A DNA stretch of 64,000 bases, from NCBI GenBank assembly GCA_964187785.1, contig OZ076416.1:54188001-54252000 (forward strand). The letters are read 5' to 3'. Each line of letters starts with the position of its first letter. The stretch's first letter is position 1. The translations under genes and the position numbers were made by a program. Below, one piece after another: positions 11,966-58,769 of the stretch. This DNA is from Amphiscolops sp. MND2022 (taxonomy: Eukaryota). The notes beneath the pieces are model-generated. The model saw only the letters and a list, made by a program, of their open reading frames with translations. It did no database searches and was not told where the DNA came from.

Positions 11966-12583
11966 CTAAAGGTACCTATATTCACCTAAACAGCATAGTT
12001 TTTTCATGATGTGATAATCCTCTATTAAGTCTGCGTCAGATTCTTCGTCTGAGCGTATTGTTACATCTATATCCGATTCAGCTCGAAACATAGGCTTAGC
12101 AGGATGTCTCAAGTCTTTCATTTTAGAAGCTCTTAGAGGATGATCTTCATTTTCTGAGTCTGAATTTTCGTTTAAAGATGCGTGAACTCCTATAGACTTA
12201 TCTCTGGATCCCGACGGCTGTGTATTTTGTGTTTCATTTGTTTCCGATCTTGGATTTGTGATTGTAGATTCATTTTTGTTAGTTTTGATTTCTTTTAAGA
12301 TCGCTTCAAACTTGCTATCGATTTCTTCTCTCATTTTCCCTATTCTGTCGTTGTTTCTTTTCTCCATTTCTTGTGTCCAAACTTGAATCTCATTACTGAT
12401 TAGACTGGGTTCAGTTAATTGATTTTCCAAGATGTTAGGACCTAAATTTTCTTGATCAACTAAGTTAGAATTAGTTAAAGTCGTATTACCTGGGTTTGGA
12501 GTCTCTACATTCTCCTCTCTGCTTGGAGAAGGAGTTTCCAACCTTCTAGACCTTCTACTTCTCTTGTTTCCCATTCTGCTCAA
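11966..12583 (-). pseudogene. Truncated gag N-terminus encoded by the 3' LTR, running into flanking DNA
   Basis: Matches the first 191 codons of the gag frame to ...LIEDYH (one I/N difference), then diverges exactly at the LTR boundary. Confidence 0.9.
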
Positions 12584-13495
12584 GTGAAAATGTATTTCGG
12601 TTGCTGGGGAAGAATTTCAATTATCTTTCGGTATCTCAAATCCAAAGAAGGATCAATATAGTCAAGAGAAAAGTTTCGCAAAAGACAGAAAGGTTTACAG
12701 CAACTGTTTTGCACAAGGTAGAATTGATGAATGACTGATTCCCAACACTAGAAACTCCAGAAAATTAAAAGCATGACACCCCTTTTTATCGCAATCATCA
12801 TCAGAAAAATATAAAAATAGAATTTCATCATCATGACATCAGGTTATATATATCTCAGTTACATGACTTTCAGAAGAATAAACAGGACCCTAGAAAGCCT
12901 GGAAACAGCACAAAATGACGTATGAAGTTGTGTTAGTGGTTGGAATTCTCAATACATTGAAATGATATAATGAATGAACAATTAAAGCGAAAAACGTACA
13001 GTAACGAGTATACGCTACTTCTCGAACCGCGTAATGCCGCATAGTAAAAAGTGCATAGTGACGAGTATACATTATGCTTTAATCCGTAGGATGCCGCATA
13101 ATCCAATTACGAAAGACGCATACTTGCGAGTAGTCAACATATCTCAAAACGCATAATGACGTATAGTCATTAGCACATATGATCATCTGATGACGTCATA
13201 TCTTAAAAGCAATATCAAATGGAAGCCAATTAGTCATTCAATGTGATTTTTGGGTATAAATCTCTAAGTTTTGGCTACGTATGACTCTCCTATCGCTCGC
13301 AAACAACTTCATTTATGAAAAGCATCATTAAAAATATTTGCATGACTATGGCAAATTAACATAAAGTTTTGCAAGGTGTTTGTTCAAGTTCTTCAAAGTC
13401 TATTTACGATGATTTCTGGGTGTTGATATTGTCGCTGCTCGCATTCATCTCTCATTGCTGCACCACGGGTCCAGTACAGCTGTATGGCTGGAACA
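12010..13495 (-). repeat. 3' LTR (1486 bp)
   Basis: Direct repeat of 26411-27898; by eye 3 substitutions and one 2-bp indel. Confidence 0.97.
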
Positions 13496-14510
13496 GTCCC
13501 GCTCTTTTGAAGATGAATAGGGCAGCTTCAAAACCATCTATGAACGCTCTAGAGCGGACTCCACGGTCTCTAACGGTTTCACCGTCGTAAGCTGTAGCTG
13601 CGAGATATTCTCCAAGGGTCTCCAACGCTATCTGGTCGTAAGTTTTGTTGCAATACTCGCATATTCCGGCCACATTAGGCATGACTGTTGGGAACAGCCT
13701 ACAGTTGTCTCTTTCATTGATTGGCATGTATAGCACGTTAGTACTGTGTGCTACAGCAAAGGGAAATCCGACTTGTACCATTGGATGTATTGGGACTGGT
13801 ACCCTAGATAGTATGTCCGGAACTCCACGTGGAGGAAGTTGAACCACTGAGGGGGTTGTGTTTGACACAGGTGCCCTCTGGATCTCATTGTAATTGGGTA
13901 GGATTAGCACACTCGCTTGACCCTCATCTTGGCCTGCATTCTGTGTGATGTTTTGCCCATTGTTTACACTCCTGTCCCAATGGTGAAAATCTGAGGAATC
14001 GGGATGATGGTTTGGTGGGTAGGTTGGGATTATTTGACTCGCGGCGTCAGACTGGTGTTCAGCATTTCTTGGGGTAGGTAAGATTGCTGCAGCCGGACGA
14101 CCATAGCTATTCAACCTGATATTAATATCAGGGTTTGGATTGCTTGAGGGTTCATTTTCCAGTTCCAGATCGCTATCAATAAATGAAGGGAGCGATAACG
14201 GAGTTGACGGCAGATCTTCTTCAACTAAGTCCATTAGTTCCCTTTCAATTCTCGTTCCTCGGACGTCTATTGTATCCTGAGTAGACATTTCGTTTTCTCC
14301 CGTGGGGAACAATAATGCTGTGGTAGCCCCCATAAATGCAGTCATGGAGTCTTCTTCTGTCGTATTCACCCTGAACCTGTCCAGCAATTGAGGAACATTT
14401 CCAGGTTCGACGATGAATTCGCTATCTGAATTGCTTGAAATATCGATAACGTCGGGTGACAGAGGCGAGTACAGGGTATCTTCTTCTATGGCAAATTGCA
14501 AGTTATTCAT
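13452..14510 (-). CDS. Accessory ORF3 (352 aa), sense to gag-pol: acidic/P/S/N/Q-rich N-terminus, C-terminal CxxC-containing segment; function unknown
   Basis: Uninterrupted ATG-initiated ORF; CRLFPTVMPNVAGICEYCNKTY motif; last 14 codons plus the stop lie in the 3' LTR; no signal peptide or TM segment seen. Confidence 0.8.
   Translation of the reverse strand: MNNLQFAIEEDTLYSPLSPDVIDISSNSDSEFIVEPGNVPQLLDRFRVNTTEEDSMTAFMGATTALLFPTGENEMSTQDTIDVRGTRIERELMDLVEEDLPSTPLSLPSFIDSDLELENEPSSNPNPDINIRLNSYGRPAAAILPTPRNAEHQSDAASQIIPTYPPNHHPDSSDFHHWDRSVNNGQNITQNAGQDEGQASVLILPNYNEIQRAPVSNTTPSVVQLPPRGVPDILSRVPVPIHPMVQVGFPFAVAHSTNVLYMPINERDNCRLFPTVMPNVAGICEYCNKTYDQIALETLGEYLAATAYDGETVRDRGVRSRAFIDGFEAALFIFKRAGLFQPYSCTGPVVQQ
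13496..13508 (-). promoter_or_regulatory. Polypurine tract
   Basis: AAAAGAGCGGGAC immediately upstream of the 3' LTR TGTTCC on the minus strand. Confidence 0.8.
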
Positions 14511-15329
14511 CTTGTGGATTCTCGAGAAGTTTCAATTTGGAATATTATTTGCAAGTTTGAAAATCTGTGTTTTCAGACGACTGATTTGTGAGTTTGTGGA
14601 GACCAAATGGTGTCGGTTATTTCGCTTTCTTCTTTCCAAGGCAAGGAAAACCCGCGAAAAAATTGCTTGTCATGGTCTGATCTCCCAAATCCCCTTATAA
14701 GGGTTTCTTTCAGGCTTCTGATCATGAGACACGTGGATGATATTTCGTAAACAAATTCCTTTTTAGGTGTTCCAGTTTTCTACATCACCTTATTTCCTCT
14801 CATCAGCGTCTTCCACACCGTTTCATCGGAGTTTTAAATGATACGTAAACAAATTTAACCTAACATCAAAGTAGAAAGAACGAAAATGTGATTTACAAGA
14901 TGTGCCTAGTTTCTGAAACTAAAATATATTTATCTGGAATTGCATGACTGGAAGCAAAGAAGATACAAATCATTAAAAAAGGGGTTCATATTAGTCAAAT
15001 CATGTTCTAAAAAAGCTTTAGCTGTAAGAAGCGTTTTGTTTTGTTTTAGTCCCGCACTTGAAAAGTGCGTATGGTTCTGTTTTTCCATATGATTTCAATG
15101 GAACAAGTGAAATTTAGGATAAAATTACATAAAAGAGTTTCTGACTGAGATATCACATTGATGTCCCAATGGCACCTTAAATCTCGTTCGAAAAAAGCAA
15201 TGAATGCATACATTCTATGCATATTAATAACATCAGAAGTTCATTTGTGATAATTAACACGTAGTTTCTTTAGTTTGTTACGTAATAATGATTCATTCAC
15301 ACAATATTAACATTGGTTCATCTCTGTGG

Positions 15330-15500
15330 ACACATACAGCGAGAACCGCAGGGTGGCGAGTATACGTCATTGCTCAATCCGTATAATGCCGCATAGTATT
15401 CAGCTGGCAATTCCGCGTACTGCCGCATACTCATCACTGCAATTCCGCATACTGCCGTATGCTCGTCTCCAGTCGATCCGCATACTGCCGCATGCTCTCG
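15330..15500. repeat. Degenerate CCGCATA-motif tandem repeats in the internal spacer
   Basis: Repeated ccgcatactgccg / ccgcatagt; similar to LTR sequence near 13000-13170. Confidence 0.65.
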
Positions 15501-15902
15501 CTTACTAAATCGTTCCAATCAGCATAGAAACGATGAGAATGAATACACATTGCTTTCAGATGTCATAATGAGTCAATCAATCACGCTGGCAGACGTAATT
15601 GACGTATGGACAGCCAATCAAATTGCAGTATTCTCCACGCATATTTGCGCTCAATCATTTCATTTGCTCTTTTGCCTTCTTTTGTTACATTAACGCCACG
15701 CCTTTATTGCATTTTATCAATTGAATTGTTTCATTTGTCAGAATAGTCTTACTAGTCAAAATTGGTTTTGTTGCAGATCAAACTCCTCATCTTTCCTCTT
15801 TAGCTCTTAGTTTTCTTCGTCGCTTTCAGTGCAGACCCACGCCCTTATCTTCATTCTGATTCCCTTTAACAAGATCTTTCTTCATTTGCAAATTTATATG
15901 AG

Positions 15903-18900
15903 ATGGACCCAACTCAGAAGACAGAATTATCTGGGAAACGGAGGACGCGAAAAGACCAAGTTCCCCATTTTCGAGGCGGAGCTAGAGATTACAATCCTTC
16001 CTTCCGATACAACACAGGTTGGTTCGATTTGTTTCTCAGAATTTAACTCGATAAGTTTCATTCAGAGTGAATTTTTGATCCCTGTCAAGCTGGCCAGGCT
16101 TGCAGCTGAAAGTGATCTAGATATTCCGACCAGATTCAGAATTTTTTCGAAACGTTTCCGTTTCTAATTTCTAAGTGACTTCCGCTTTCTCTATTCATTT
16201 CCTGTCCCCGCGTCCGGATTCAGTCAATTTTTAACTTCCGTCACTTGACATAGTTTTTATTTTTTCTTGTTTATCAACAAGGTAGCGTGTTTTAGATGAA
16301 CCAGAAGCTCCAGAAACTTCTCCAGCTAAATCGCCTGCCAAATTTTATACTTCGTTGGTGTCCACTTCTCCAGCCACACCACGAGTCCGTCCCGGGACAA
16401 AAACACCCAGTACCCCAGGTCTTCAAATCGACGAGGGGATAAGAGTAGAGGTTGATCGCAGCTCAATTATTCCTGAGGCCTCTCCTCCAAAATCAACAAG
16501 TTCCCGATCTCGTTCAGGAAAGGATTCTTCAAACTCAAGGCCCACAAGTCCACAACCACCCACGACTCCTACCCGCAACATGGATAGTTCGGTCCATATG
16601 TTAGACCACGAGGTATACAGGGGGTTTGAGATGCCAGGTACTTCACGAGTTGAGCCGACCCACTTTGATCAGTTTCTTGGGCAGGCTGCAGATGAGATTC
16701 CCAATCAAATCATTTCCTCGACTGTTGAACACTGTAATTCGCAAGACATCGACCTAGTAGAGGTCCCCCATGAAGCTGTTGCAGCAGGTAGTTACCCCGA
16801 CACGTCTCAACCCAGCCTTAGCATTACGAGGCAAGAGATTCTCACTTTGACGAGTGTCTTGGAGCGTATCCCCCAAACTTACCTGGTAGGGGAAGAGGTT
16901 GATCCCAACCGGTCTTTGTCTCTCATGATTGTAGACGAAAACGCCTTACCCCCATTGATAGCTTCTTCAAGCCAAGATGACACTCCTGCGCAGGCTACCT
17001 CCGAAGTAGCACAAGTTGTTGTCAATACCGGGAATCCCATAGCAAGTGGGAAAAGACGTAGGCCCAAGTATTCCCTTACAGGGTCAATGTTCAGGAAACA
17101 CCCTGTATTGAAATTTTCAGCCACTGGCCCCTTGGACCGGGACGACACCTTACAAGTGGTGGTGTAGGGTGTGTAAGACTGAACTCTCTTTGATTAGTCG
17201 GGGAAGCCTCGATTAATGTCCCATTATCGTTCAGAGTCGCACCTAGTCAAAGAACATCGCATCCGTATGGAGGTGCCTGGAATGTCTTTATTTGACAAGG
17301 ACGAAAAAGAACTGCTTGGACTTTCTTTGCAAGAGGCCAAAAAGAAAGCTAAGGATACGTATCCCATTGCACCACAATTGGATCCTTGCCGCCCATTAGT
17401 CGGACAAGACTCAGTGCCTGACCAGCGCAGCCAGTAGTCCCACTGCCAAAATTCTTTCTCAAATTACCGTTCTTGAATTTGGACTTCGCCATGGAGGGCA
17501 CATAAACAGTCTCACTGGCATTTACGATGAACTTGTGAGGTTCAATTCTATGAGTCACTTGAGTACCCAGAATTGGAGCCAGGAGCGTCTTTTCGTTAGT
17601 ATTTGTCATTGTTGCGTATTTCTTTTTCTTTCGACTTTGGGGCATACTTAATTGATGTTCTTGTTTTAGGGGATAGTGGTACACCTGTTCCGTGAACTGA
17701 TGGCCTACTGTGTGACAATGGTTAATTCTTCGGGATTTTACTCATTAGCATTACAACACACTCCTACAGCCTCTTTCATAATCTTGAATTTCTGGTCGGG
17801 CAATGTGTTCCACAGAGTCTGCCTTGGTAGCACTCCACGAGGGATGTTACTCCCCCATAGGATCCTAAATTTCATTTCATCCTTCTTGTGTCTTTTTGAA
17901 ACCTTCCCGACATGTGTCGCTGTTATCAATGTTGGAGACAAATTGGGCGACTGCTTATCTACCTGTCTCCCTGGAAAACAACAGCCTGCTAACATTCGAA
18001 CCTTCAACCCAGAGGAGTTTGAGCGAAGCCTTTCAGTCCCCACCGCCCAAATCATAGAGCGACATGATTTCCGGACTATCCTAGATTTCTTGTTAATGAA
18101 ATTGCGCACTGCTCTTGACATGGATTGGCTGAAAAAACTACCCCTTCTTCACAAGGTAGACCTCATATTGTTTCTTTCAAGTAATCGTATAGAGTAGTTA
18201 TCCCATTCCATTTCCTTTAGAGTGTAATTCGCTTGGAGTATTCTCTCGAGGAAGCATCTTCCATCATCGAAATCTTGTCAAACAGTTGGGACCATGTCAA
18301 GGACCATTTGAACAGAGTCGCCCGGCTTCCGGTCTACCGATTCCATATGCGAGAGGTTATACCACATCCCAAAATTCTTTCTATTGAATCAGGCTCCGGG
18401 TATTCCGGTTCTCCCTTTTCATCATGATCTTTTCGTTTCAGCCAAACACTTTGGATGAGTGTTTTCGACTCGACACTGCCTACTTGGCACGACTCTTCGT
18501 TATAAGATATGTCATCGATCACTGTTAGTTGTTTTCTTTGTTGCTATCAACATAACATTTTGACAGGTTTCGGTATTCTACCTCCTTTTCCATACAGTAC
18601 CTCTTGTACTTATCCCCCTGATCTGTATAGTACTTCTCACACACATGTGTTGCTTGAACACTCATGTAAATGTCCGATTATGCTAATTCCGCACAATGAC
18701 GTATGATCAGTACGTCTTGTTTCGTATAGTGACGCATAGTTATCCCCACTACTAGTGGTGGTAAAATATATACTTAATCATGCTAATTCCGCATAGTGAC
18801 GTATAGTCACCACAGCTTGTTCCGCATAGTGACGCATAGTCGCCACAGCTTGTTCCGCATAGTGACGCATAGTCGCCACAGATTGTTCCGCTCGATCACG

Positions 18901-20165
18901 TATAAGTTCAAATCTTTCGAGGTGAGAACTTATATCACTAATGCATTTCTGCACGTGACGCGTATTGTAACTTTTACCAAAAGTTAACATTCACTTGTTC
19001 TGATTTATTCTTTTATACTAATGGTAACAAACATCATTTTGTTTGGTATGTTTTAGACAATTCTGCATTCTCTGAAGTCCAGTCAAATGTCGAGGGCGGC
19101 TTCCGATTATTCAATCAATTTTCGGTATTCATTTATAGCCAGCTCCAGAGTATCTTGCCTGATGCTACACTAGGCAGCGTTTCTGATTGGGATGGGTTCC
19201 TACAGTTGGATTTGAACCAGCCAGAACTCCCTTTCAAATCAGCAGATGAGTATGTCCTAAATGAGGATTTTCACCGACTTGTTGTCGCAAGCAAACTGCC
19301 GCGCCCAAGCAAATTTGTAGACCAGTCCATCGCGTTCGGGAAGGCCTTGTGTAAACAATTGATGGAACATGAGATCGTCAATTCTGGTCTCGTTAAGGGT
19401 TTGTCTGCCTTCGATCCTGCGGTAATTCTTGATGGACCCGAAAGCCACTACATCACTGCCATAGAGAAATTGTCTAGTCATTTCGTTTCTATGAAGCTGA
19501 TTACTTCGAGTGACAAAGCGAAGGTGACAAGTCAATACCGTTCCTTTGCCATTAAACTGCGGTCCGAAGCAATCCCGGCTTATAGTGATTGGATTCACTT
19601 CCTTTCAGCTCATCACGAGATCCAATGTCGACCTGAGTTGTTTCGTCTATATAAGCTCTCCTGTCTATGTTTGCCCCCTCTTGTAGACATACCTCCGGAA
19701 TTCACTGTCCCAATGCCCAAGTTAGCTGTTGATGCGGAGATGTTTGATTCATGCCTTAGAAGTCTCCAAATGTCGTATTCAACAGTTCCTCACGTGTCCA
19801 GTTTATACAAGGGTCCGAAGTCCGTGTGCAGAGTCTTCCGCCTGTTGGGTCGTGGATCCGATCTACTAGTGGACAAAAAGTTTTCCGTCTGGAACTTCTT
19901 AAAAGGAAGTGGTCCTCGTCGGACTGCAATGTTGGGAAAAATGGAGGCTGAATACCGAAAGGCAGTTCTACATTACGACAGGCCAGTGGTCACTTCAAAC
20001 ACTACTACTCCCAGTGTTAGCCGGGCAAGTAGCACACACAGCACTCCATCTCCTGATTTGTCTTTGGGCAGAGTTAATGTGTCGCTTAGTCGCTGTGCTA
20101 ATGTATCCCCAGAGGGTACTGTGAAGAAAAACAATACCAAAATTGTGAAGGGCAAGAAAAACTAG
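15903..20165 (+). CDS. Antisense spliced gene (~1070 aa): S/P-rich N-terminus, BED-like zinc finger, inactive hAT-transposase-like domain. Exons 15903-16017 (tentative), 16296-17594, 17670-18155, 18221-18355, 18442-18523, 19057-20165. Three frameshifts in exon 2.
   Basis: Five GT-AG introns whose phases all join the ORF fragments in frame; YKWWCRVCKTELSL...MSHYRSESH finger; SSGFYSLAL...RVCLG and PELFRLYKLSCLCLP resemble hAT/DUF4371-type transposase segments (recalled similarity, not searched). Confidence 0.75.
18787..18890. repeat. 33-bp tandem repeat (~3 copies) in intron 5 of the antisense gene
   Basis: ttccgcatagtgacgcatagtcgccacagcttg starting at 18787, 18820 and 18853. Confidence 0.9.
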
Positions 20166-20388
20166 TCCTTTGTTGTTGTTTGTATCTTCTTAAACTGTCT
20201 TTATTACTTCTTTGTTTGTATAATCCTTTGATGTTTGGTTGTATTTATTCTAGCATTATTTATTCTGTTAGCAGAAAAAGAGAAGTCCAAAAACTATGCG
20301 TTATAACGCATGACTAAGAAGGAAGATAAAAAGATTTCTCTGCAAGTGTTTTCTAGTATGTGATTGAGATGAAGTTTAGAAGTTGTTT

Positions 20389-23300
20389 TTAATATCTGTA
20401 TGTGTCAGAGTAGTTTGGGTTGGGATTAGGGCGTAAGTTGTACTTTTCACCACGGGTATTTATGGGTTCTTCTTGCGATGGGGTATTTTGGGAATTTTCT
20501 GGGGTTTTCTGAATATCATTGTCTGTTGAAGTATTTGTATCTTTTTGGGTTTTTTGGGTATTATTATCATTTTCTTCATTTACTTGTTGTGGAGTTTCGT
20601 CATCATGATTTTCATGGTTTTGATCTTGTTCAGTGGTCTGTTCCACTGGGCTCCCCCCACTATTTTTTGAAATTTCGAGGGAGGGAGGGTGGTTATTTTC
20701 GGGTGATGTAATGGGCAGGTATTCAATATCTTCGATATTTTGTGAGTACTCTGGAGGGTTGTCCTCAAACGGGTTGGGGCCGAAATTTGTATTCCAAGAT
20801 TGAGCATATAGATCATCTTGCGTTATCGGCAGTTGGTCATCTTTCTGCCAATCAGTTTCTCGTACGAAAATGTCTGCGAGGGGAGCTTGGGGGGTAAACT
20901 TCCTCAAGCGAATTCGATGCAGAAGTTGCGTCTTGTTAGTTCCTAAGCGTCTAACTATGTAGTTATTGTTAGGGAGGACTTTTTCAACTTTATATGGACC
21001 TTGCCATCTAAATTCTCGAAAAGGTATCTTTGTTGCCTGGGTATCCGCCTTCGGGTTTAGGACGTAACAATAATCCGTTGTTTCAAGTGGTGATGCCTTT
21101 GCTTTCCTATCATAATATGCTTTGTATTTGAGATAGGATTGCATTATGTTCTTTTTGGTTTGGTCAAGCAGTATTTTCATTCTTCTTTGTACTTCCTCTG
21201 CTACATCTGTATGTGGTAGGTATTTTGGGTTAGGGTTGTATCCAAGCTTGTAATCGAGTATGTTATGGGGTATTCGCCCATGAAATACTCGTGAAGGCTC
21301 ACAACCCAGTGTTGCATGGTAAGTAGTGTTGTGGTTTAAGACTGCTAGCGGGAGAAACCTATGCCAATTGTTTCGAAATTCCCCCGTGGCAGCTTTAAGA
21401 TGCGTTTTCACTGATGCATGAGTTCTCTCTAGGATTCCAATGGTTTGAGCGTGTTTCATCGTTGCATGCTTGAGCTCAATTCCTAGAACTGCGGCTACTT
21501 CATGTGTGACTTGGGCATTAAATTGGGTGCCCAAATCCGTAATGATTGTGGTTGGTAGATATGTGTGTTTGCAGAGGATATCCATTATTACTCGGGCTAC
21601 AGCAGAAGCTGTAATGCGTGTTACTGGGTATGCAAACAAATACCTTGAAAAAACGTCTATCGCTGTGATTATGTGGTCATAGCCTCCACTTGGAGGGAGA
21701 TTGGGTAGGATGTCCATTTGAAGAATGTCTTCTGGACCAAGGTCCCATTCTGGACAGTTGAGAAGTTCAGTTCTGAGAAGATCATTGTTGATCCGTTTGG
21801 TTTGTATGCAAGTTTGGCAATTGGTGACCCATTTTTTGATGTATTTAGCGATACATGAGTAATAGTACTTTTGTCGGGCTTCTTGAATCATCTTCGTAAT
21901 ACCTGGATGGTTTGAGTTGTGACCATGTAGGGCTTGAAGAAATTCTTCTAGAAGTTGAGCCGGAAGTAGTATCTGGTAATGTGAGGTGGTCCCCGTGTCG
22001 GTATAGTACCTGCGGGTGAGAACTTCTTGTTTGATTTCAATTCTAGCAATATTTTGAAGATAATGGTGGTATCTATAGTCAGATGCCAACTCGTGTTCAT
22101 CAAAAGGATGTCCTTCTATTTTTGCTCGTAAATTTCTGAGTACAATATCGTTGTTTTGTTCTAAACGAATCTTCGCATTGTCTCGGAAGTGACCTTCCGA
22201 ACAAGTGTTTAAACCAGAAGTAGGTTTATGGAATTGTTGGAGTTCGGTTATGTTATTTTCTGGTTCATTGTGTGTCTCGTTTTGAGCTTGGTCTCGGATG
22301 TTCTGCTTCTCTTGCCATAATTGGTTTTCATCTAGTTCATCATCGGGGAGGATGTAAATCTGCTCTTCTTCTACGATCCCTGATGATTGTATGTTGACTT
22401 CAATTGCTTTAGTGTTGATGTCATTTCGAATTGTCAGTTCAAGTTTTTCAACTGGATTGACTTCGGCGCGTGAGAGGAAGTCAGCTGCAGTGTTCATTGA
22501 TCCCGCAACGTGGGCGATTACAAAATTATATTGTAAAACATAATCGCATGCATTCCAAAGTGCCGGTGGGATAAGTTTTGCTTGAAAAAATCGGGTTACT
22601 GATCTGTTATCGGTGAACACAATTACAGGGAATGTGCTTCCCCACATGAGGTGTCCAAATTCACCAAAGGCAAAATATATGGAAAGGAATTCCTTGGCAT
22701 ATATAGACATTTTTGTTTGTGTCGGGTTAAAAGTTTTGGAACCAAATGCTATGGGAGCGTATGTTTTGCGTTTTGATTGCAGTTTTTGGTTCGGGTCGTC
22801 TTCTATCATAATGGCATATCCCGCAGCAGTAAAGCTGGCATCGGACATGATTATGAGCTGTTTGTCTTTGAGGGGTTGTTTCAATGCCAATTGGCATGAA
22901 TTTTCGAGGAGTTTATTGAGGTTGATGAAATCCTCTACTAAGTTTGTTGGCACATAGAATTTGGATGTTTCCTTGAGAAGTTTAAAGAACGGAGACAGCC
23001 GTTCTGAGAGTCGTGGAATGTAGTTGCGATAGTAGTTTAGGAAACCTATATATCGCTGGAGGGCTTTTTTGGATTTAGGAAATCTGAGTTTAGACAGAAA
23101 GTTTTTGACTTTTTCTGCTTGCGGGGCGACTCCTTCAGGTGTGATTGTGCGTCCCAAGAAGTCAACTTGTTTGACGCCAAAGTGGCATTTGGACATCGTA
23201 AGTTTGAGGCCAGCATTTCTGATGCATTCGAACACTGTTCTGATGTTGGCGCATAGTTGCTGGGCATTATTTGCAGCGATGCCAATGTCATCCACGTATT

Positions 23301-25296
23301 GGGCGCACTGGTCTGCTTTGATTGCTTTATCTAGGTACTCTCTCATGAAACTAGAAAATGCTGAGAGAGATCTGCTTAGGCCTTGCGCTAGTCGCCTATA
23401 AGCGAAGGTTCGGCTGGCAAAGTTAAAAGCGAGCATTTGTATGGATTGGTAGTCCGCCATTTGTAGGCAGTGGTAAGCCTGTGAGCAGTCCAATTTGCAG
23501 AAAAGCTTTTTCCCTGCCATATGTTGCGCTGCGTCGGACAATGTGCTTACCGGGTGGTTGTTATTTGTATAGTCTTCGGTTATCAAATTGTTGATTTTCC
23601 TGAGGTCAACAAGAAGTCTAAGGCGTCCATTTGGTTTGCGTTGAGCAAAAATTGGACTAGCATATTTGGAGAAGGGTAATGTTGTTATGATGCCGTATTT
23701 GTGTAGAAGGGCAAGTTCTACTGTAATGTCGTCTTTAAGGTCGATTGGAGTTGGCAGACTTTGGCTGTACGCTGGTCTGTCATCATTGGGTGTGAGTTTT
23801 ACCTTGAATTCCCGATTTGTGCCAATGTCGAAGCGATGACGAGCAAAAATGTCATGGAAGTCAATGAGAATTTCTTCAATATGCTGACGTTCTGCTTGGC
23901 TGAGTGTCGTATCGGACCAGTCAAAATTGGAAAGGAATGTTTTACGCGATTCTTCATTGTCTTGGGGGTTCAACTTTTCAAGTCGTTGCAACTCGAGTAG
24001 TTCGTCATATATTCGCTGTTGAATTGGGGTGTAGGTTGTAGGATCGCCTGGCTCCTCTGGAGTTGGGAACCAGTAGGTTTCTTGTTCTTGATTCTGTGGA
24101 GGAACTTTCAAGAGTTCATGTAAGTAGATTTCCGATGTATCGTCATGTTGCATCATGAACGATAGTATGGTTGGGTCTACTGGTTGTATGTATTTGATTT
24201 GTTCTGGCGTCAGTATTTTGAAGTCCGCCAGGTGAGTGTCAAGGGGAATTGTGTATGGTAGTTCAGAAAAATTAATGATTTGGTACCCGATAGCATTATT
24301 GTTAACCGTGCTGAGTGACGATGTGATGAAGATGCTATCGTGTTGTTCAAATTGTTGGGATGGGGTTACAACTCCTGTTGCATCATGGTCCATGAGGTGA
24401 GGCATTCTGCTGGCTATGGCGAGGGTTTCGCCAGGTTGTAGAGTATAAGTGTTTTCTGCTAACAGTGGAGTTGCCTGACGCATAGTTATTTGCGTATCAG
24501 GTTTAAGTTGCATTGAAAGATATGGAAATGTCAGGATGCCTTGAGTGACATCGAAGATGGCATTGTTCCGACGTAGGAAACAAAGGCCAATTAATGGGTT
24601 CGGTAAATTTTTCATGATGATGAAATTTTCTCTTAGCATAAAGTCAGCCACTTCGAATTCTAGTAAGACAGTGCCAATTGGGACTTCTAATTGTCCGTTG
24701 GCCACCATGATTTGAAAATTTGGCGGTGGGCCAGTTTCTCGGATTGCATCATTTGCTAACAATTTAATTTTGTTGAGATCCTGTTCGGAAATTGCACTCG
24801 TTAGGGCTCCTGTGTCTATGAGTCCGTCGAGAGTTAATTTTTCGAAGTCCATAGGCATGTAGTACATGTGGCGTTTACGCTTTAGTGTAAGAGAGGTTGA
24901 TATTGGAAAGTATGATAGGTTTCGTTCCTTATCGAACTGTATATGTTCGGTGAGGTCATCATCAAGAAGAGGTTGCTTTTGTTCGTTGCAAGAAGAAATC
25001 GGTGGTTGTGGTTGTATCGTGGTGGTTTTATGTTGGGTTTGTGATGTTGGGTCGATTTGGGGTTGGTTTTGTGGTGTGGGTTGTTCGAAGTAGTTATCTG
25101 GTGCATCTCTCAAGAGTTCATAGTATTGATCTGGAGAGGTGTTCGGAGTTTCAGATGGTTCAGGAGTTGGAGGAGTAGAGTCAGGTTCAGTAGTTAGTCG
25201 TTTGAGTTGAATGTCTATGGTTTCCACTTGATGCTGCCAGTCATCTTGTGGTTTTATTGCGGCGTTGTTGTTAAGGCGTGGCGTTTCTAGTTTAAA
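20389..25296 (-). CDS. pol: Gypsy Pol polyprotein (protease, RT, RNase H, integrase), expressed by -1 frameshift
   Basis: LIDTGA; YVDDI; SDASF and FTDN; HHCC (HGHNSNH...CQTC) plus D-D-E (QMDIL, ITDLG, ILERTH); GPY motif; frame open from the slippery site to the stop at 20389. Confidence 0.97.
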   Translation of the reverse strand, partial: FKLETPRLNNNAAIKPQDDWQHQVETIDIQLKRLTTEPDSTPPTPEPSETPNTSPDQYYELLRDAPDNYFEQPTPQNQPQIDPTSQTQHKTTTIQPQPPISSCNEQKQPLLDDDLTEHIQFDKERNLSYFPISTSLTLKRKRHMYYMPMDFEKLTLDGLIDTGALTSAISEQDLNKIKLLANDAIRETGPPPNFQIMVANGQLEVPIGTVLLEFEVADFMLRENFIIMKNLPNPLIGLCFLRRNNAIFDVTQGILTFPYLSMQLKPDTQITMRQATPLLAENTYTLQPGETLAIASRMPHLMDHDATGVVTPSQQFEQHDSIFITSSLSTVNNNAIGYQIINFSELPYTIPLDTHLADFKILTPEQIKYIQPVDPTILSFMMQHDDTSEIYLHELLKVPPQNQEQETYWFPTPEEPGDPTTYTPIQQRIYDELLELQRLEKLNPQDNEESRKTFLSNFDWSDTTLSQAERQHIEEILIDFHDIFARHRFDIGTNREFKVKLTPNDDRPAYSQSLPTPIDLKDDITVELALLHKYGIITTLPFSKYASPIFAQRKPNGRLRLLVDLRKINNLITEDYTNNNHPVSTLSDAAQHMAGKKLFCKLDCSQAYHCLQMADYQSIQMLAFNFASRTFAYRRLAQGLSRSLSAFSSFMREYLDKAIKADQCAQYVDDIGIAANNAQQLCANIRTVFECIRNAGLKLTMSKCHFGVKQVDFLGRTITPEGVAPQAEKVKNFLSKLRFPKSKKALQRYIGFLNYYRNYIPRLSERLSPFFKLLKETSKFYVPTNLVEDFINLNKLLENSCQLALKQPLKDKQLIIMSDASFTAAGYAIMIEDDPNQKLQSKRKTYAPIAFGSKTFNPTQTKMSIYAKEFLSIYFAFGEFGHLMWGSTFPVIVFTDNRSVTRFFQAKLIPPALWNACDYVLQYNFVIAHVAGSMNTAADFLSRAEVNPVEKLELTIRNDINTKAIEVNIQSSGIVEEEQIYILPDDELDENQLWQEKQNIRDQAQNETHNEPENNITELQQFHKPTSGLNTCSEGHFRDNAKIRLEQNNDIVLRNLRAKIEGHPFDEHELASDYRYHHYLQNIARIEIKQEVLTRRYYTDTGTTSHYQILLPAQLLEEFLQALHGHNSNHPGITKMIQEARQKYYYSCIAKYIKKWVTNCQTCIQTKRINNDLLRTELLNCPEWDLGPEDILQMDILPNLPPSGGYDHIITAIDVFSRYLFAYPVTRITASAVARVIMDILCKHTYLPTTIITDLGTQFNAQVTHEVAAVLGIELKHATMKHAQTIGILERTHASVKTHLKAATGEFRNNWHRFLPLAVLNHNTTYHATLGCEPSRVFHGRIPHNILDYKLGYNPNPKYLPHTDVAEEVQRRMKILLDQTKKNIMQSYLKYKAYYDRKAKASPLETTDYCYVLNPKADTQATKIPFREFRWQGPYKVEKVLPNNNYIVRRLGTNKTQLLHRIRLRKFTPQAPLADIFVRETDWQKDDQLPITQDDLYAQSWNTNFGPNPFEDNPPEYSQNIEDIEYLPITSPENNHPPSLEISKNSGGSPVEQTTEQDQNHENHDDETPQQVNEENDNNTQKTQKDTNTSTDNDIQKTPENSQNTPSQEEPINTRGEKYNLRPNPNPNYSDTYRY

Positions 25297-26984
25297 TCCT
25301 TCGATGAGGATTGTTGGAGTCGTTCCATTTTGGGTTTGATGTGCTTTTTGGCTTGTTTGTAGTTCTCAATAATCTTCTTCTGGGCTTCTGTGAGGTTCCA
25401 TTTAGGTGGGCGATTTTCCATGTTTTCGCCAAAATAGCAATTTTCTTCAGTGTGTCCTGGTGTGTTACAATTTTCACATTTGTCCGCTTCCTGATCTTCC
25501 TGAAGTTTGCGTCGCTTGGCTAGTTTTGGGCAATCGTTCATCATATGGCCCTCTTCTTTGCAATAACGACATTGGGTGTCTTTAAGGGTCTTGTTTGGGA
25601 CTGATTTTGGCGTTTGTGTTTTGAGTTTATCAGGTTGTTTTTTGTTGGTTTTTTCTGTCTTTTGTTCTTTTTTGGTTGCGGTCATCTGTGTTTTGACCAT
25701 GGATTCATCGGATTCCAATCCGTTTAGTTCCATCTCTCGTTCGAGATGTTTGACGATTTGGTTATAGGTGCCATTTTCAAGGTATGCTTGATTAATGGAC
25801 TTTTTGAGGTGGGGGGGGGGCATCTTAGCATAAAGTAAATTCTCTATCATTTGATGCGCATTAACCCCAAACGCTTTTTTGGCACTTTCTTCGAGTTCTT
25901 CGAGGAAATCTGGGAGTTTTTGGTTTTCGGGGTCAAAGATGAGTCTATTGAATCTGTGTTTGGCAGATGCGCTGGACTCCGGTTTTACGTATTTTCGTCG
26001 GAAAACTTTGAGAATGTCTTCTAATGTTGTTGTGGGCGTTCTTTGTATGTTTTTGAACGTTTTCAGTGCCAGGCCTCTCAGGTGGGCGTCGAAATGATTG
26101 ATTTTCATGTCTTCTGTAAGATTCGGTTGCATTCTGAGTGTTGTGTGGAACAAGTCCTCAAAATACTCAAATTTTTCATTTTTCTCGTTTTTTCCATTAA
26201 ATGTGAGTGTGTTTTTTGGGTGGAAGAATGTTTGTGATTCGTTTTTGTTTGCTAATTTTTCTATTGCCAGGGCAATTTGATTGACTGGGTCAAGGGGTGT
26301 TGCAGATGAAGTTGTTGTGTTCTGGGCTGCGTGGGATCCTGTTGTGTCGTTTAAAGACTGTGGGTTTTGCGAACTCTGTCTATTGAGTTGTCGGTTAGCT
26401 CCTGTCACCATGTGATAATCCTCTATTAAGTCTGCGTCAGATTCTTCGTCTGAGCGTATTGTTACATCTATATCCGATTCAGCTCGAAACATAGGCTTAG
26501 CAGGATGTCTCAAGTCTTTCATTTTAGAAGCTCTTAGAGGATGATCTTCATTTTCTGAGTCTGAATTTTCGTTTAAAGATGCGTGAACTCCTATAGACTT
26601 ATCTCTGGATCCCGACGGCTGAGTATTTTGTGTTTCATTTGTTTCCGATCTTGGATTTGTGATTGTAGATTCATTTTTGTTAGTTTTGATTTCTTTTAAG
26701 ATCGCTTCAAACTTGCTATCGATTTCTTCTCTCATTTTCCCTATTCTGTCGTTGTTTCTTTTCTCCATTTCTTGTGTCCAAACTTGAATCTCATTACTGA
26801 TTAGACTGGGTTCAGTTAATTGATTTTCCAAGTTGTTAGGACCTAAATTTTCTTGATCAACTAAGTTAGAATTAGTTAAAGTCGTATTACCTGGGTTTGG
26901 AGTCTCTACATTCTCCTCTCTGCTTGGAGAAGGAGTTTCCAACCTTCTAGACCTTCTACTTCTCTTGTTTCCCATTCTGCTCAA
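25287..26984 (-). CDS. gag: Gag (565-codon open frame; first ATG at 26975)
   Basis: Capsid-like region (FEDLFHTTLRM...LRGLALKTF); two CCHC knuckles CRYCKEEGHMMNDC and CENCNTPGHTEENC. Confidence 0.93.
   Translation of the reverse strand: MSRMGNKRSRRSRRLETPSPSREENVETPNPGNTTLTNSNLVDQENLGPNNLENQLTEPSLISNEIQVWTQEMEKRNNDRIGKMREEIDSKFEAILKEIKTNKNESTITNPRSETNETQNTQPSGSRDKSIGVHASLNENSDSENEDHPLRASKMKDLRHPAKPMFRAESDIDVTIRSDEESDADLIEDYHMVTGANRQLNRQSSQNPQSLNDTTGSHAAQNTTTSSATPLDPVNQIALAIEKLANKNESQTFFHPKNTLTFNGKNEKNEKFEYFEDLFHTTLRMQPNLTEDMKINHFDAHLRGLALKTFKNIQRTPTTTLEDILKVFRRKYVKPESSASAKHRFNRLIFDPENQKLPDFLEELEESAKKAFGVNAHQMIENLLYAKMPPPHLKKSINQAYLENGTYNQIVKHLEREMELNGLESDESMVKTQMTATKKEQKTEKTNKKQPDKLKTQTPKSVPNKTLKDTQCRYCKEEGHMMNDCPKLAKRRKLQEDQEADKCENCNTPGHTEENCYFGENMENRPPKWNLTEAQKKIIENYKQAKKHIKPKMERLQQSSSKDLN
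25290..25296 (-). promoter_or_regulatory. -1 programmed ribosomal frameshift heptamer U_UUA_AAC
   Basis: GAT TTA AAC TAG ends gag; the -1 frame TTT AAA CTA GAA is open into pol. Confidence 0.85.
26393..26410 (-). promoter_or_regulatory. Primer-binding site (tRNA-Leu-like)
   Basis: TGGTGACAGGAGCT directly follows the LTR-terminal CA; resembles the tRNA-Leu PBS TGGTGTCAGGAG. Confidence 0.75.
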
Positions 26985-27898
26985 GTGAAAATGTATTTCG
27001 GTTGCTGGGGAAGAATTTCAATTATCTTTCGGTATCTCAAATCCAAAGAAGGATCAATATAGTCAAGAGAAAAGTTTCGCAAAAGACAGAAAGGTTTACA
27101 GCAACTGTTTTGCACAAGGTAGAATTGATGAATGACTGATTCCCAACACTAGAAACTCCAGAAAATTAAAAGCATGACACCCCTTTTTATCGCAATCATC
27201 ATCAGAAAAATATAAAAATAGAATTTCATCATCATGACATCAGGTTATATATATCTCAGTTACATGACTTTCAGAAGAATAAACAGGACCCTAGAAGGCC
27301 TGGAAACAGCACAAAATGACGTATGAAGTTGTGTTAGTGGTTGGAATTCTCAATACATTGAAATGATATAATGAATGAACAATTAAAGCGAAAAACGTAC
27401 AGTAACGAGTATACGCTACTTCTCGAACCGCGTAATGCCGCATAGTAAAAAGTGCATAGTGACGAGTATACATTATGCTTTAATCCGTAGGATGCCGCAT
27501 AATCCAATTACGAAAGACGCATACTTGCGAGTAGTCAACATATCTCAAAACGCATAATGACGTATAGTCATTAGCACATATGATCATCTGATGACGTCAT
27601 ATCTTAAAAGCAATATCAAATGGAAGCCAATTAGTCATTCAATGTGATTTTTGGGTATAAATCTCTAAGTTTTGGCTACGTATGACTCTCCTATCGCTCG
27701 CAAACAACTTCATTTATGAAAAGCATCATTAAAAATATTTGCATGACTATGGCAAATTAACAAATAAAGTTTTGCAAGGTGTTTGTTCAAGTTCTTCAAA
27801 GTCTATTTACGATGATTTCTGGGTGTTGATATTGTCGCTGCTCGCATTCATCTCTCATTGCTGCACCACGGGTCCAGTACAGCTGTATGGCTGGAACA
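26411..27898 (-). repeat. 5' LTR (1488 bp)
   Basis: Begins TGTTCCAGCC, ends TTATCACA; near-identical to 12010-13495. Confidence 0.97.
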
Positions 27899-27966
27899 CA
27901 TGATTTACCTAAATCATCAAATTTTTGGAACATTACCTGAATTTACCTAAATTTACCTAAAGTAGC

Positions 27967-28541
27967 ATGTCTTTTTTCTCAGAAATAGCTCCAGTTCTCA
28001 GAAATGTGGCAACAGCTGCTCAGCGCTATTGCCTCGTGCGTTTAGTTTCTGTTTGTTTTTCACAAAATGTTCAAACTATTTACGAAAATGATTCAAAACT
28101 TCTCGCTGAAGTAAGGTTTTTGAAAAGTAACCTTGTGAGCTTTAAGGGTTCCATTGAAAATTTGGAAAGCCAGACTTTGCCCTTGATTGATACTACAACA
28201 ATTGTCTGCGAAACACTCGCCGGATTCCTAATTTGGATAGAAGGATATTGCAGAAAACTGAATCGATTATCGAAAAAAATGCTGGATTCTCAATTGTAGC
28301 TGCAATTGCAAAGTGCATCACCGGCTTCAATGATTTACTACCGCCAGAAATATTGGATCTGGAATTCTTTCCTTCTGAGATGGCGTCCTTCAAGAATGAC
28401 CATATAACTTCTGTTGATGTTGAAAGAAGTTTTTCGACAATGAATCACCTGTTTTCAAAGCAGCGTGAATGCTTCGCTTTCGAAAATTTTAAATATTGTT
28501 TGATTTTCTACTTCAACGCCGATGTATTTGATGGAAAATAA
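27967..28541 (+). pseudogene. hAT transposase C-terminal remnant (frameshifted)
   Basis: ITSVDVERSFSTMNHLFSKQRECFAFENFK dimerisation-type motif, lying inside the hAT TIRs. Confidence 0.75.
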
Positions 28542-29279
28542 ATATTTTCCAATTATAATACTTGTTTTACCCAATTTTACCTAAATCAGGGATGTCGCCT
28601 ACCTAAATCACCCAGTTATTTTACCTAAAAAACCAAGCCCTGTTGATAAGGTATTCGTAAGCTCCTCAATTCCCCCCATTGTGTCTGAAATAATATCTTG
28701 ATATACACTGCTGTTCAATGATCAAACATTATCGCATGAATCTTCAGCAATTCAATATGGAAGTTTAATATTCGTGAGATGCAACTAGCGCTCAACCGAA
28801 ACGTGACTTCAGTTCTGGTAAATAAATATTGAATATTTGTTCATGGGAATGGTCGTTTGTTTGTCAGAGAAACAAAACGGTTGAGACAAATCTCAAGATA
28901 TGGAAGATTAAATACCATAGCGCCTTCAAGTTGACAAGATAATCGATCATTTAAATCACAACTCGTTCCGTTTCAGCTCAGCAGTGACGAGGAGGAGGAA
29001 TATGAAACGACACAATCAGGCAGGCATTTCATCAATTCAGACAACTTAGAATTATGCTTAACCATAAGCTTCAAGTCCACCAATACTACTAGGTCTTGGA
29101 AAATGCCAATTAAAAGTTGCTCATATTTGACGGCAGAGAGAATTTGCGTTAAAATTCCTAGACGATTTTAACTCAAATTATCAGGGTATATTTTTGACGG
29201 ACGTGTCAAAACAACTGTACAGACAAGTATTTGTAACCATATCAAATTCTTTCACTTGGCACAAATTATGCTCGCAAAT

Positions 29280-29860
29280 TATGTGAAATTTTGGGGAAAA
29301 ATCGATAATGTTATACGAGAAATGAAAACGTTATATCCGAACTTTCAAAATGATACATCCGAACTTTTAAAACGTGATATCCGAACTTTGAAAACGTTAC
29401 ATCCAAACTTTGAAAACTTTACATCCGAACTTTGAAACGTCATATCCGTATTTTGTAACGTTACAGCTGAACTTTGAAACGTTAATCCGAACTTTGAAAC
29501 GTTATATCAACTTTGAAAACGTTACATCTGAACTCTGAAAACGTTACATCCGAACTTTGAAACATTATATCCGAATTTTGAAACGCTATATCCGAACTCT
29601 GAAAACGTTTCATCCGAACTTTGAAACGTTATATTCGAACTTTGAAAACGTTACATCCGAACTTTGAAAACGTTACATCCGAACTTTGAAACGTTGTATT
29701 CGAACTTTGAAAACGTTACATCCGAACTCTGAAAACGTTACATCCGAACTTTGAAAACGTTACATCCGAACTCTGAAAACGTTACCTCCGAACTCTGAAA
29801 ACGTTATATTTGAACTTTGAAAACGTTACATCCAAACGAAAATCTGGGTTATCCTCTCTT
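29280..29860 (+). repeat. 21-22-bp minisatellite (gaaaacgttacatccgaacttt) with conserved flanks
   Basis: More than 20 units; array and flanks match 57915-58250 in inverted orientation. Confidence 0.9.
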
Positions 29861-30385
29861 TTTTTAAAGATTCTATTTTTCTCCGAGTAGATATATTCTA
29901 CAATTTCATCAATGATTATAGTTAATTGAATTGTCATGCTAATCAATCAAAAGCGACAACAGTAAGATGGGTTACTGATGAGATTGTCACAAAGTATTAA
30001 TGAAGTTATCTTCGGGTGTCAGCAATCTAGTCAACTTTAATTAACTACGAAATGAAGTGACATCTGTCTTTATAAAAGTAGGTGACTTCAAGTTTAAATA
30101 AATATTTGAAAGTTCTTGAGGACATGCATCATGGCATCACATTAGTTTTTAAGTACTCATTAACATGATAATGAAAAAAATGGAACCGTGAATGAAATGA
30201 AATGCCTGCACGACATCAACAGAAAGTGCCTTAACTACTGCATACATGAGCGACGATGACTACCCAGAGGTTTGTAGCACTTGAGTTGTAATCACCAGAA
30301 AAGGTGCAAAAATGTTCATAAAAAATTAGAAAGTTTTGGCCTTTTTGTACACTTGGGGGCATTTTCTGACACTTTCTTTAGAATA

Positions 30386-31799: not shown

Positions 31800-32143
31800 C
31801 AGAGTTTTGACATCGCTTATTTTTTCCGGTAATTGCTAAACCGCTAATTTCAAAATCGCTATTTCACTGAAACACTTTTTCGACTAACTATTAAATGTTT
31901 GAATTCAAGATTGTTTTAAAAATAGAACGATAACTTAATTGAATTTTTACAAGAAAAAAAACTAGAATTTTTATACTGTGTGGACTTTACAGATGAAGAG
32001 TTGGAATGTTTCGAAATTCATTTTAAAACTCAGTGTATCTTCCGAAGAAATTTTGAATTTGGACAATATATTAATTGCTGCTAATTTGAATCGCTAATAT
32101 AATCGCTGCGAAAATTCTGCTGAACCGCGGTGTCAAAACTCTC
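31800..32143. mobile_element. hAT-type MITE (344 bp) in a host intron
   Basis: TIR cagagttttgaca / tgtcaaaactctc; 8-bp TSD CCCACAGC at 31792-31799 and 32144-32151. Confidence 0.85.
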
Positions 32144-32176
32144 CCCACAGCGCTTAAAAGTAACTCCCACTTTCAG

Positions 32177-34619
32177 GTAACCGTCACCTTGGGTGCCAAA
32201 AAGCGACCTCAAGAACCCAACTACCCGAGAGAACAAAAAGCTAAGAAGAGTGTTTCTAAAAAGAGTTCTGTTCAGAAGAACCGGCAAGCAGAAGTGACAG
32301 CTGCTGAAGTCTCACAGGAACCGGTCACCGATACACCTGCCAGGAAAAAATGCCCTAAATGCAAGAAAAAGTTCACGAACATTTCCAACCATTTGAGAAA
32401 GTCGACTGCATGCAGATCAGTGCTGACAGAACCGTCTTTTTTGAAGGAACGAAAATGCAGATTCTGTCACGAAGCTGGATTTCGCTTTCAAACTGTGCGG
32501 GACACGAAACGGCATTACAGAAAACTTCATGACTCAACTTGCTCTGAGTGTTTCGAGAAATTTCACAATGCCCGAGATAGAGAGGAACACGAAATCGATG
32601 TGCACCGTATTCTGTATTCATTAGACAGCGATTCTGAATATGAAAATACCGATGCATCATGCGTGGACTCTCAAACGTCCTCGTCGAAAAACAAGGCAGC
32701 CAAAAAAGTATCGACCACAGCCACTTCTAGTTCTTCCAACAGACCTCCGTTGCCCAAGGTCAAAATATCATCGAAATCTTCTCCGTCGAAAACTGCCTCA
32801 GAGCCAAAAGAGTATACACTGACCTTCTTAAACACCTTGCCATCCTCCCTGGAAAGTCTTGTAGAGACCACAACAATCCCATCAACAAAGTCACCAGAGA
32901 CCTCATCTTCTTTTGAAACACCCGTGCCTGTACAACCCAAATTTCCTGTACGTCTCTGTAAAGCAGACAAAAGTGCTCCATCTTTCGACAAATGTGAAAG
33001 CCTTCAGTATAGTGCTTCAAATTTGGAAGCGGAATTAGCCAAAGAATCAGCCCGAATTCTTCCCTTGTTTTTTACCCAGCCTGCCAAAAATACATGTTCG
33101 TCAATGGTCTACGAGTCAAATGCTTCAAGAAAATGTTCTGTTGAGCCCCCGGTTGTTAATCAAACTGCTGGTTCCGAAACAATTTTTGAAGAGGCGGAAG
33201 AAATACCCGAGACCAAGCCTCAAAGTGCTCCTTATGAAACAGTTAAGTTTTTGAAGGCAAAATATAATAAACGTTCTCTGGTTGTCTTCAAACCTCCTCC
33301 TGAAGCGACACTGAATTCCCCGATACCCCCTCCTGCAAATGAGGAAGTTTCAGATATGCCACCTGAAGTACCTGTTCAGGTTAATTGGAGGCAAATATCT
33401 CCGGGCGAACAGAGGTTCATCATCAAGGAGAATGCTCCACCTACAATCATCAACCCACAACCTCAACCCCAGCCTAAAATTCCAAATTCTGTAAAATTGA
33501 ACCCTAATTTCATCAATTTCTTGTCAACATACAATCCGAAGTCTGAAGCTCAAAAGAAAGCAGCTACTGGAGGAAAATCTGGGTCTTCACCAAAGACGTC
33601 GAAAGAGGCTGAAGATGAAACTTCGACGCCAAAACAACCAAGTTTCTCCACTCCTCCGACTGACTTTGTGACAATTCAAGAACATCAGGATTTAAATCAG
33701 AAACCTTCCTCGGAAGCATCGAAGTCTATCGTCATGAAAGCTAGGAAAAGTGTTACGAGTAAAAGAAAAAGGAAACAAGAGGAACAAGATAAACCGCTCA
33801 AAGACAAACCACAAGTTTCTAATGAGAAGTTAACAAAGAGGTCACTCACCTCGATTTTGGAAGACGAAAAAAACCAGCACTCGACTGTCACCGAGCCGAG
33901 TCCTGTAACCCAAAAGTTAGAAGCTGTGATAAATCCAGAAAGCTCTGTAAACTCGAACCCTGCTACGGAAAAAACGGAAATTCCTCTCCTCGAAATGCTT
34001 CTTGAGGTGTCTTCCAAAACCAGAGCTGATGCTGCCACGACTCAATTCCACGTGCCATACCCCAGAGAGTTCCCGGCTGCGCCATCTGGGAAAAGCAAGC
34101 CGAGTGCTTCTACTGACAAGGAATCTGATCCACTTTCTGAGCCAAGTTCAAGTTCTTCGACCGAAAAGGAGCCTGAAAGCAGCAGTAGCGCTGTTAACTA
34201 TTTCTTTCTGAAGAACAATGTTGAGAAAGAGAAGGAGAGTAAAAAAGTGACCCAGGTAGAGGATTCTTCGAAAAAATTGGACAAATCAATAGCTGGCCCT
34301 CAGTTGGAAACATCTCAATCTCAACGAACAGTCTCAATGGAGACACCCGAGGATCCCAGGTTGAAAAAAACGAAGCCACCACAAGTTGTCGATAAACCTT
34401 CAGTGTCTATTGCTTCTACGTCACATACCAACAACCGAGGAGTGCGCATTGAGCTCTCGAAGCCATTTGAGGTTTGCAGAGTGAAAAAAATTCTGACGGA
34501 AATTAGACGCAGTTTTGAGAAGCAGGAGCCAAAGAAACATGGAAAGCGCAAACAATTTGAGTACAACAAGGCTCTGAGACAAGTACTTGATGAACATAGA
34601 GCTTTGTCAGCCGTCCAAA
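32177..34619 (+). CDS. Host C2H2 zinc-finger protein, large exon (S/P/K-rich disordered region)
   Basis: tttcag|GTA...CAAA|gtaagt; fingers CPKC...NHLRKSTAC, CRFC...RHYRKLH, CSEC...EHEIDVH. Confidence 0.85.
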
Positions 34620-35605: not shown

Positions 35606-35849
35606 GTGAGTACATAATTGAAATTATTTTTCCTTCGCATCAATTGAGCTGTTAAAAATTAGAGTTGTTATTGTTCTTTGTTCTTTTATAGAGCACATAA
35701 GAAGTCTAAGATTCTTAAGAGCAAAGTCGTCTAAGGTACCAAGTCAAACTAGCTAGCTATTTCTATTTTCAAGTATCGCTGAGATCTCAGTTAGTTCTTT
35801 CTCCTAAGGGAAGACTGTTCGTCAGAGCATATTCTATTTTCTCTAAGTA

Positions 35850-36023
35850 CAGTAGAATCCGCCTAATTCGTATCACTGGGGACCGAATAAAATAGTACGA
35901 ATAGTGAGAAATACGAATTAACCGGATGATATTACTTTGGTCTTCGCGAAATGGGGGTCTCAGATACATACGAATTAAACAAAGATCCGAATTATCCGGA
36001 TACGAATTAACCGGAGTTGACTG
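35850..36023. mobile_element. TA-flanked MITE (174 bp)
   Basis: TA-cagtagaatccgcctaattcg...cgaattaaccggagttgactg-TA; inverted copy at 50588-50761. Confidence 0.85.
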
Positions 36024-50560: not shown

Positions 50561-50587
50561 TTTCTTCTCTCTTGAAGTTCCCAAATA

Positions 50588-50761: not shown

Positions 50762-50878
50762 TATGTAAATGATACTGGACTTTACTATGTCGAATATCAA
50801 TTCTGTGACTGCTCCAAGCATCATTTGTGATTGATGGTGACTGTAGTTTGGGTTGTTCAAATTTCAGTTCCACTTCGG

Positions 50879-58766: not shown

Positions 58767-58769
<3 letters not shown>

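Follow-up and report, generated by a model that had tools for sequence, protein, structure and literature searches.

Extra antisense open reading frames (ORFs) in LTR retrotransposons are a long-standing puzzle without an assigned function. The plant Ty3/gypsy elements Retand, Grande, and RIRE2 carry a conserved antisense ORF between pol and the 3′ LTR, for which DNA binding and transposition regulation have been proposed, and the function of these extra ORFs behind pol is described as unknown (PMC11963269). HTLV-1 HBZ provides an example of an antisense nuclear regulator in an LTR element (PMC11963269). VANC binds short motifs that are arrayed in one orientation in the non-coding parts of VANDAL elements, introns included (PMC5735166), and TnpA of Spm is derived from a transposase (preprint 10.64898/2026.08.24.746577, the accessible text of which never uses the word retrotransposon). 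In a review of large transposons, the accessible text includes LTR elements that have captured ORFs, with no antisense case (PMC6431247). In our literature search, we found neither a hAT-like antisense gene with several introns nor the exchange of a cassette with fixed ends reported for an LTR retrotransposon; supplements, Repbase, Dfam, and subscription journals lay outside the search, and the family may be catalogued there.

Here, we describe a retrotransposon family of which an antisense gene is, judging from sequence comparisons, a real and unusual feature, although the copy in the window (the whole 64-kb stretch of DNA analyzed) is broken. The window contains a complete 15.9-kb Ty3/gypsy LTR retrotransposon on the minus strand (12010–27898), flanked by a 5-bp target-site duplication (12005–12009 and 27899–27903). 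The features checked for Ty3/gypsy membership are present: TG..CA LTRs with the duplication, gag followed by PR-RT-RH-IN (Pfam scan), and a primer-binding-site-like stretch together with a polypurine tract. The 5′ LTR (26411–27898, 1488 bp, TG..CA ends), which contains the gag start codon, and the 3′ LTR (12010–13495, 1486 bp) are three substitutions and two gap columns apart. The primer-binding-site-like stretch (26393–26410) starts with TGG directly 3′ of the 5′ LTR, and the polypurine tract (13496–13508) precedes the 3′ LTR. On the same minus strand, gag (25287–27017, 576 open codons, with a Ty3 capsid-like region and a CCHC knuckle) overlaps pol (20389–25365, 1658 open codons) in a different frame. 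We also noted that the gag frame begins within the LTR (26411–27017), so that about 200 gag codons are present in the 3′ LTR as well. The stretch from pol to the 3′ LTR accommodates the antisense gene and, beyond it, an extra sense ORF (13452–14531, minus strand) of ~350 aa with an acidic N-terminus and a CxxC close to its C-terminus. This sense ORF, situated behind pol as is the env ORF of env-bearing (errantivirus-like) gypsy elements, is backbone-linked and had no match in the Pfam scan; its C-terminal ~75 residues are almost constant among backbones of the first of the two clades described below, and the second clade also has an ORF with a similar acidic N-terminal motif. In the window copy, gag and pol are open, the LTRs near-identical, and the antisense gene broken.

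Several further features were noted outside the element. A truncated twin (L009, L068; G000:C2, another contig) is 100% identical over window positions 12061–20839, frameshifts included, and represents a partial duplication or an assembly artefact. Just outside the 5′ LTR, positions 28191–28541 (+) match PF05699 weakly (E 0.098) and carry what is left of the C-terminal part of an ordinary hAT transposase; genome-wide, PF05699 has at least 150 matches, some of them within ORFs of 600–700 aa. An 873-codon ORF (32090–34711, +) starts with C2H2-like fingers followed by a long low-complexity remainder, with only sub-threshold Pfam hits, and seven adjoining ORFs of 113–251 codons (58528–63018, −) are probably a decayed element. 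Repeats include a 22-bp minisatellite in two inverted arrays (29268–29866 and 57940–58247), a 35-bp array (2203–2670), and a 178-bp inverted repeat pair (35848–36025 with 50586–50763).

The sequence-only reading had placed a five-intron gene antisense within a retrotransposon, and both points held up. The gene lies on the strand opposite to gag-pol of the full LTR element, and its introns (16018–16295, 17595–17669, 18156–18220, 18356–18441, and 18524–19056 on the plus strand; 278, 75, 65, 86, and 533 bp) are all GT..AG. Because the gene is antisense to gag-pol, these introns are not removed from the genomic RNA. On the plus strand, exon 1 (15903–16017) provides the ATG and a basic patch, and exon 2 (16296–17594) encodes a variable S/T/P/E-rich region, a KRRR basic motif, a CxxC..H..H zinc finger, and a helical region. 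Exon 3 (17670–18155, 486 nt) covers the region that matched the initial RNase H-like strands in hAT proteins, and it lacks the catalytic aspartates. Exons 4 (18221–18355, 135 nt) and 5 (18442–18523, 82 nt) are followed by exon 6 (19057–20165), which encodes an all-helical domain (best structural match Hermes 368–609), an S/T-rich tail, and a lysine-rich end. Basic, NLS-like stretches are found at both protein ends and just before the finger. The proposal that matching phases join these exons into one protein of ~1070 aa is right for the family, in which 1075–1100 aa are open, but wrong for the window copy, whose exons sum to 3226 nt, which is not a multiple of 3. Relative to four close copies, three small frame-shifting deletions in exon 2 (at ~17143, ~17211, and ~17422) cause the spliced frame to stop at codon 329, right at the finger, and the motifs KWWCRVC and SHYRSESH, once assigned to a single window-copy protein, lie in different frames. 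An assembly error at 17143–17422 is the less likely explanation, because the twin carries the same breaks.

We then compared copies across the window's own genome (1.07 Gb). Inner junctions were placed by translated flanks in 58 other loci and the window (n = 59), misses being truncated, rearranged, or mutated copies. All four inner introns have GT..AG in 40 of 59 loci, and the exon lengths 486/135/82 are exactly kept in 44 of 59, whereas the inner introns vary in length (roughly 74–153, 62–78, 62–111, and 433–704 bp). Among the 40 with all inner splice sites intact, 14 have an uninterrupted ATG-to-stop frame of 1075–1100 aa. In an alignment across copies, the first ATG was found in 22/23, the intron-1 donor GT in 20/23, and the intron-1 acceptor in 23/23. 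The six-exon, spliced-type structure thus appears conserved in the family far beyond chance, and we infer that the gene is actually spliced and expressed. We also observed conserved non-coding blocks in intron 1 (window 16085–16225) across first-clade alleles, possibly a promoter or enhancer, for example for the sense ORF. In four loci (L011, L057, L038, and L082), a single element carries internal tandem duplications of the antisense gene (3.3–3.6 kb) or of portions of it.

All 123 scored last-exon candidates match at 63–100% identity and 106 have no stop; they are the best-scoring of 6814, hence intact copies are over-represented. Neutral dN/dS among copies, named beforehand as evidence that would count against the sequence-only reading, was not what we found: for the listed close pairs among 24 open-frame copies, dN/dS was 0.00–0.28 in the finger region and exons 3–6, and 0.16–0.80 in the N-terminal region. 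In comparisons across subfamilies, synonymous sites have reached saturation (pS ~0.82), with pN at 0.15–0.21 outside the N-terminal region. By these substitution patterns, the antisense gene is under purifying selection.

A profile search of public assemblies returned 290 relatives, with identity down to ~21%; the ten that were looked up are all on metagenome-type contigs. Querying with a distant relative uncovered a second clade in the same genome, with the gene again antisense and directly behind a gypsy pol in 20/20 loci fetched. In matched pieces, its pol is 73–86% (RT) and 54–61% (integrase) identical to that of the window. An integrase on the opposite strand adjoins the gene in 53/58 first-clade and 20/20 second-clade loci, and no copy outside a retrotransposon was found among the 78 loci, which were selected by similarity. 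The gene is passed on together with the element and falls into two deep clades. Among 19 second-clade loci (one partly duplicated locus excluded), introns 2 and 4 are at the same positions and phase, while exons 3 and 4 form a single 621-nt exon (486 + 135) in 15/19 loci. Intron 5 is at the same place in most, but cleanly missing in 4/19, in two separate sub-lineages, such that exons 5 and 6 are fused. Because these absences are precise at the predicted junctions, they suggest that the introns are truly spliced and that spliced RNA is now and then copied back.

Next, we considered what the protein might be. For the BED-like finger of the sequence-only reading, a CxxC..H..H finger is conserved in both clades, but there was no BED Pfam hit and only weak C2H2 hits were obtained. 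Across 20 sequences from the two clades, which are ~20% identical, two Cys and one His are invariant and the second His is present in 19/20. For the body, a structural search of 48,161 chains placed Hermes at the top, with 180 aligned residues versus 83 for the next, over Hermes 368–609. The hAT fold proposed earlier was backed insofar as the family named beforehand ranked first, and weakened insofar as the Z score is within the range that the tool calls common. Sequence-level tests for a hAT relationship were all non-significant, including the two best profile matches to hAT proteins, which are nevertheless collinear and on the expected segments; the best profile hit falls on the first RNase H-like strands. 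No Pfam hAT match was obtained for the antisense protein, and PF05699 (hAT C-terminal dimerisation domain) had no hit in 25 and 95 family members, although the structural match covers the same Hermes region. No terminal inverted repeats or 8-bp target duplication were seen at the cassette ends in 34 aligned copies.

The catalytic residues of Hermes are D180, D248, R318, W319, and E572 (PMC6027215). In agreement with the earlier claim of a catalytically dead protein, no conserved D, D, E, RW, or CxxH was found at the matched places. In the register given by the profile matches, the column of the first D is Q in 23/24 and V or E in 10/10 sequences. With registers set by eye from known motifs, the E place is F in 24/24, the fourth strand has no conserved acid, and there is no W at the RW place. 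As aligned, the antisense protein is without the catalytic DDE residues of hAT transposases. Its hAT origin is probable. It seems unlikely to us that the gene was instead captured from the host or is left over from some other transposase superfamily, with an unrelated job and with the motif described below being bound by host transcription factors only. The non-significant sequence tests, the common-range Z, and the failure to find a full-length relative among long proteins would fit such an origin. Against it stand the first rank of a pre-named family among 48,161 chains at twice the next one's aligned length and over the expected part of Hermes, the collinearity of the two best profile matches, and the confinement of the gene to retrotransposons among the similarity-chosen loci.

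The non-coding parts of the element contain a candidate target for such a protein. In the window, a 17-bp motif made of two CG-containing halves spaced 10 bp apart is found 15 times, versus 0.3 in shuffles, always inside the element, in non-coding DNA, and on one strand (+). Three copies lie in each LTR (12909–13166 in the 3′ LTR and the same three at 27310–27567 in the 5′ LTR), four upstream of the antisense gene (15380–15495), and five in intron 5 (18690–18872, spaced mostly by 33 bp). The motif is present in intron 5 of 26/26 first-clade copies, even though little else in that intron aligns well between subfamilies, and upstream of the gene in 25/26, the remaining one having a misplaced anchor; it is nowhere else in those 25. 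An exact 18-base form has 159 genome matches, compared with 0 for the reversed control. In the second clade, the motif is absent and a different repeat lies upstream of the gene instead. Both repeats contain TGACG, which we take to be a CRE-like core, and for this reason a host bZIP factor is a live alternative as the binder. Clusters of a short motif in the non-coding parts of the cognate element, as expected of a VANC/TnpA-like regulator, are thus present. Downstream of the upstream cluster, a conserved block (15612–15703, +) holds a presumably CCAAT-like site (15612–15620) and a near-invariant 11-mer (15693–15703) where the 5′ exchanges described below end; we regard this block as a putative promoter.

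Collectively, we lean, with moderate confidence, towards the reading that the family encodes a nuclear, sequence-specific DNA-binding regulator, an activator or anti-silencer, built from a catalytically dead hAT-like transposase. The original suggestion of a captured transposase repurposed as a regulator, targeting, or anti-silencing factor is supported in part. The antisense gene would have its own internal promoter, and its product, as an oligomer, would bind the clustered motif in the LTRs, promoter, and intron 5 via the zinc finger. The variable acidic N-terminal region might then switch the family on or shield it from silencing. The regulator would act in trans, so that single copies such as that of the window could lose the gene. 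Because finger and motif are the same across first-clade alleles, any such allele should work on any backbone. Alternatively, the protein could be a negative regulator like HBZ that binds the motif, or a host factor on it, and limits LTR transcription for copy number control or to block related elements, the many alleles being self-recognition types. The antisense position behind pol, the many cassette types at 63–72% identity, the CRE-like cores, and a recent insertion that has lost the gene, as would happen if a single copy paid little for the loss, are all compatible with a repressor. Different targets are not obvious, however, when the motif is constant among first-clade alleles, and purifying selection on the gene of a replicating lineage would be easier to explain by help to replication; we judge repression distinctly unlikely. 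Slightly less likely still is a replication cofactor that, bound to the LTR motif of the cDNA, anchors the pre-integration complex on chromatin or brings it into the nucleus. Motifs in both LTRs, the NLS-like stretches, and a window integrase without a chromodomain in the Pfam scan would suit such a role, but 9/15 motifs lie internally, in the promoter and intron 5, as a transcription factor would have them, and alleles were swapped freely onto near-identical pol, contrary to a tight integrase partnership.

That swapping is a pattern which the comparison of copies added to the earlier observations. The pol and antisense-protein trees (60 of the 78 loci used) are discordant. Five copies match the window at ~90–100% identity wherever their LTR, sense ORF, promoter, and pol were read, but mostly at only 60–75% over the gene; other copies show the reverse, being similar in the gene and dissimilar in the backbone. 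The switch points coincide, one right after the near-invariant 11-mer and the other at the pol stop near 20385, where many copies have a short degenerate repeat of the pol end. They delimit an exchangeable cassette (15704–20385, +) containing the whole antisense gene with its UTRs. For block typing, 44 of 59 loci were divided into 15 blocks, and 15 truncated or rearranged loci were dropped. At the cassette/pol boundary, 83 pairs show an identity jump, and at the promoter/cassette boundary 40 do, compared with at most one at each of seven boundaries inside pol and none where coding blocks of the gene adjoin; the pairs do not represent independent events, and the 44 copies were selected for diversity in the gene. 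Six more jumps at the block after the cassette 5′ end are due in part to misplaced anchors. The same 44 copies carry 23 cassette types.

These block patterns indicate that the antisense gene is exchanged between backbones as a single block with fixed ends. In our preferred reading, recombination between co-packaged genomes at the two conserved ends would shuffle the alleles; the conservative mechanism is that reverse transcription switches templates, at conserved blocks, from one co-packaged RNA to another. If, instead, the antisense transcript were copied while the plus strand is synthesized, the fixed ends and the intron losses would both be accounted for; most swaps retain introns, however, which disfavors this route unless donors are unspliced or selection removes intronless products. 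In a bolder scenario, which we offer as tentative and rather doubtful, the spliced trans-acting regulator is a DNA transposase that this retrotransposon lineage has domesticated, and more than 20 old alleles of it circulate via dedicated fixed-end exchange. Reverse transcriptase would copy the antisense transcript, which has the polarity of minus-strand DNA, so that the swapped block is the transcription unit itself and precise intron losses come from spliced donors. Frequency-dependent selection against host silencing would hold the alleles in a serotype-like cassette system.

Whatever its function, a multi-intron gene can persist, and lose or gain introns precisely, in an element that passes through RNA in each cycle. 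If the hAT origin is true, this is a class II enzyme domesticated by a class I element. Fixed-end exchange points either to a recombination route so far unrecognised or to boundaries between modules being under strong selection. The family is unusually testable, with many copies in one genome, a candidate finger, a candidate motif, natural nulls, and natural swaps on near-identical backbones.

How, then, does the family compare with known systems? It appears to share with hAT transposases (Hermes; DUF4371/ZMYM1/THAP12) the order of finger, helical region, RNase H-like strands, helical insertion, and last helix, but lacks the conserved D, D, E, RW, and CxxH, shows no TIRs at the cassette ends, and lies inside a retrotransposon. 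The bZIP protein HBZ is small and is expressed from the 3′ LTR, whereas the present gene encodes ~1080 aa, has a putative internal promoter, and is exchanged as a cassette. With VANC and TnpA, as far as the accessible sources describe them, the likeness is that of an intron-containing accessory transposon gene with a one-orientation motif array that includes its own intron; those genes belong to plant DNA transposons and are likened by mode of working, with no sequence relationship claimed. Unlike the situation with VANC, the motif here is common to all first-clade alleles rather than diverging with each. Retand, Grande, and RIRE2 are alike in the placement of the antisense ORF behind pol and in having tandem repeats in the same region (PMC11963269, in whose main text the word intron is absent); no exon alignment of our gene matched TRP28 (PF04195), the domain of these plant antisense ORFs. 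What sets the present family apart from these plant elements is the five introns, the zinc finger, the hAT-like body, and the fixed-end exchange.
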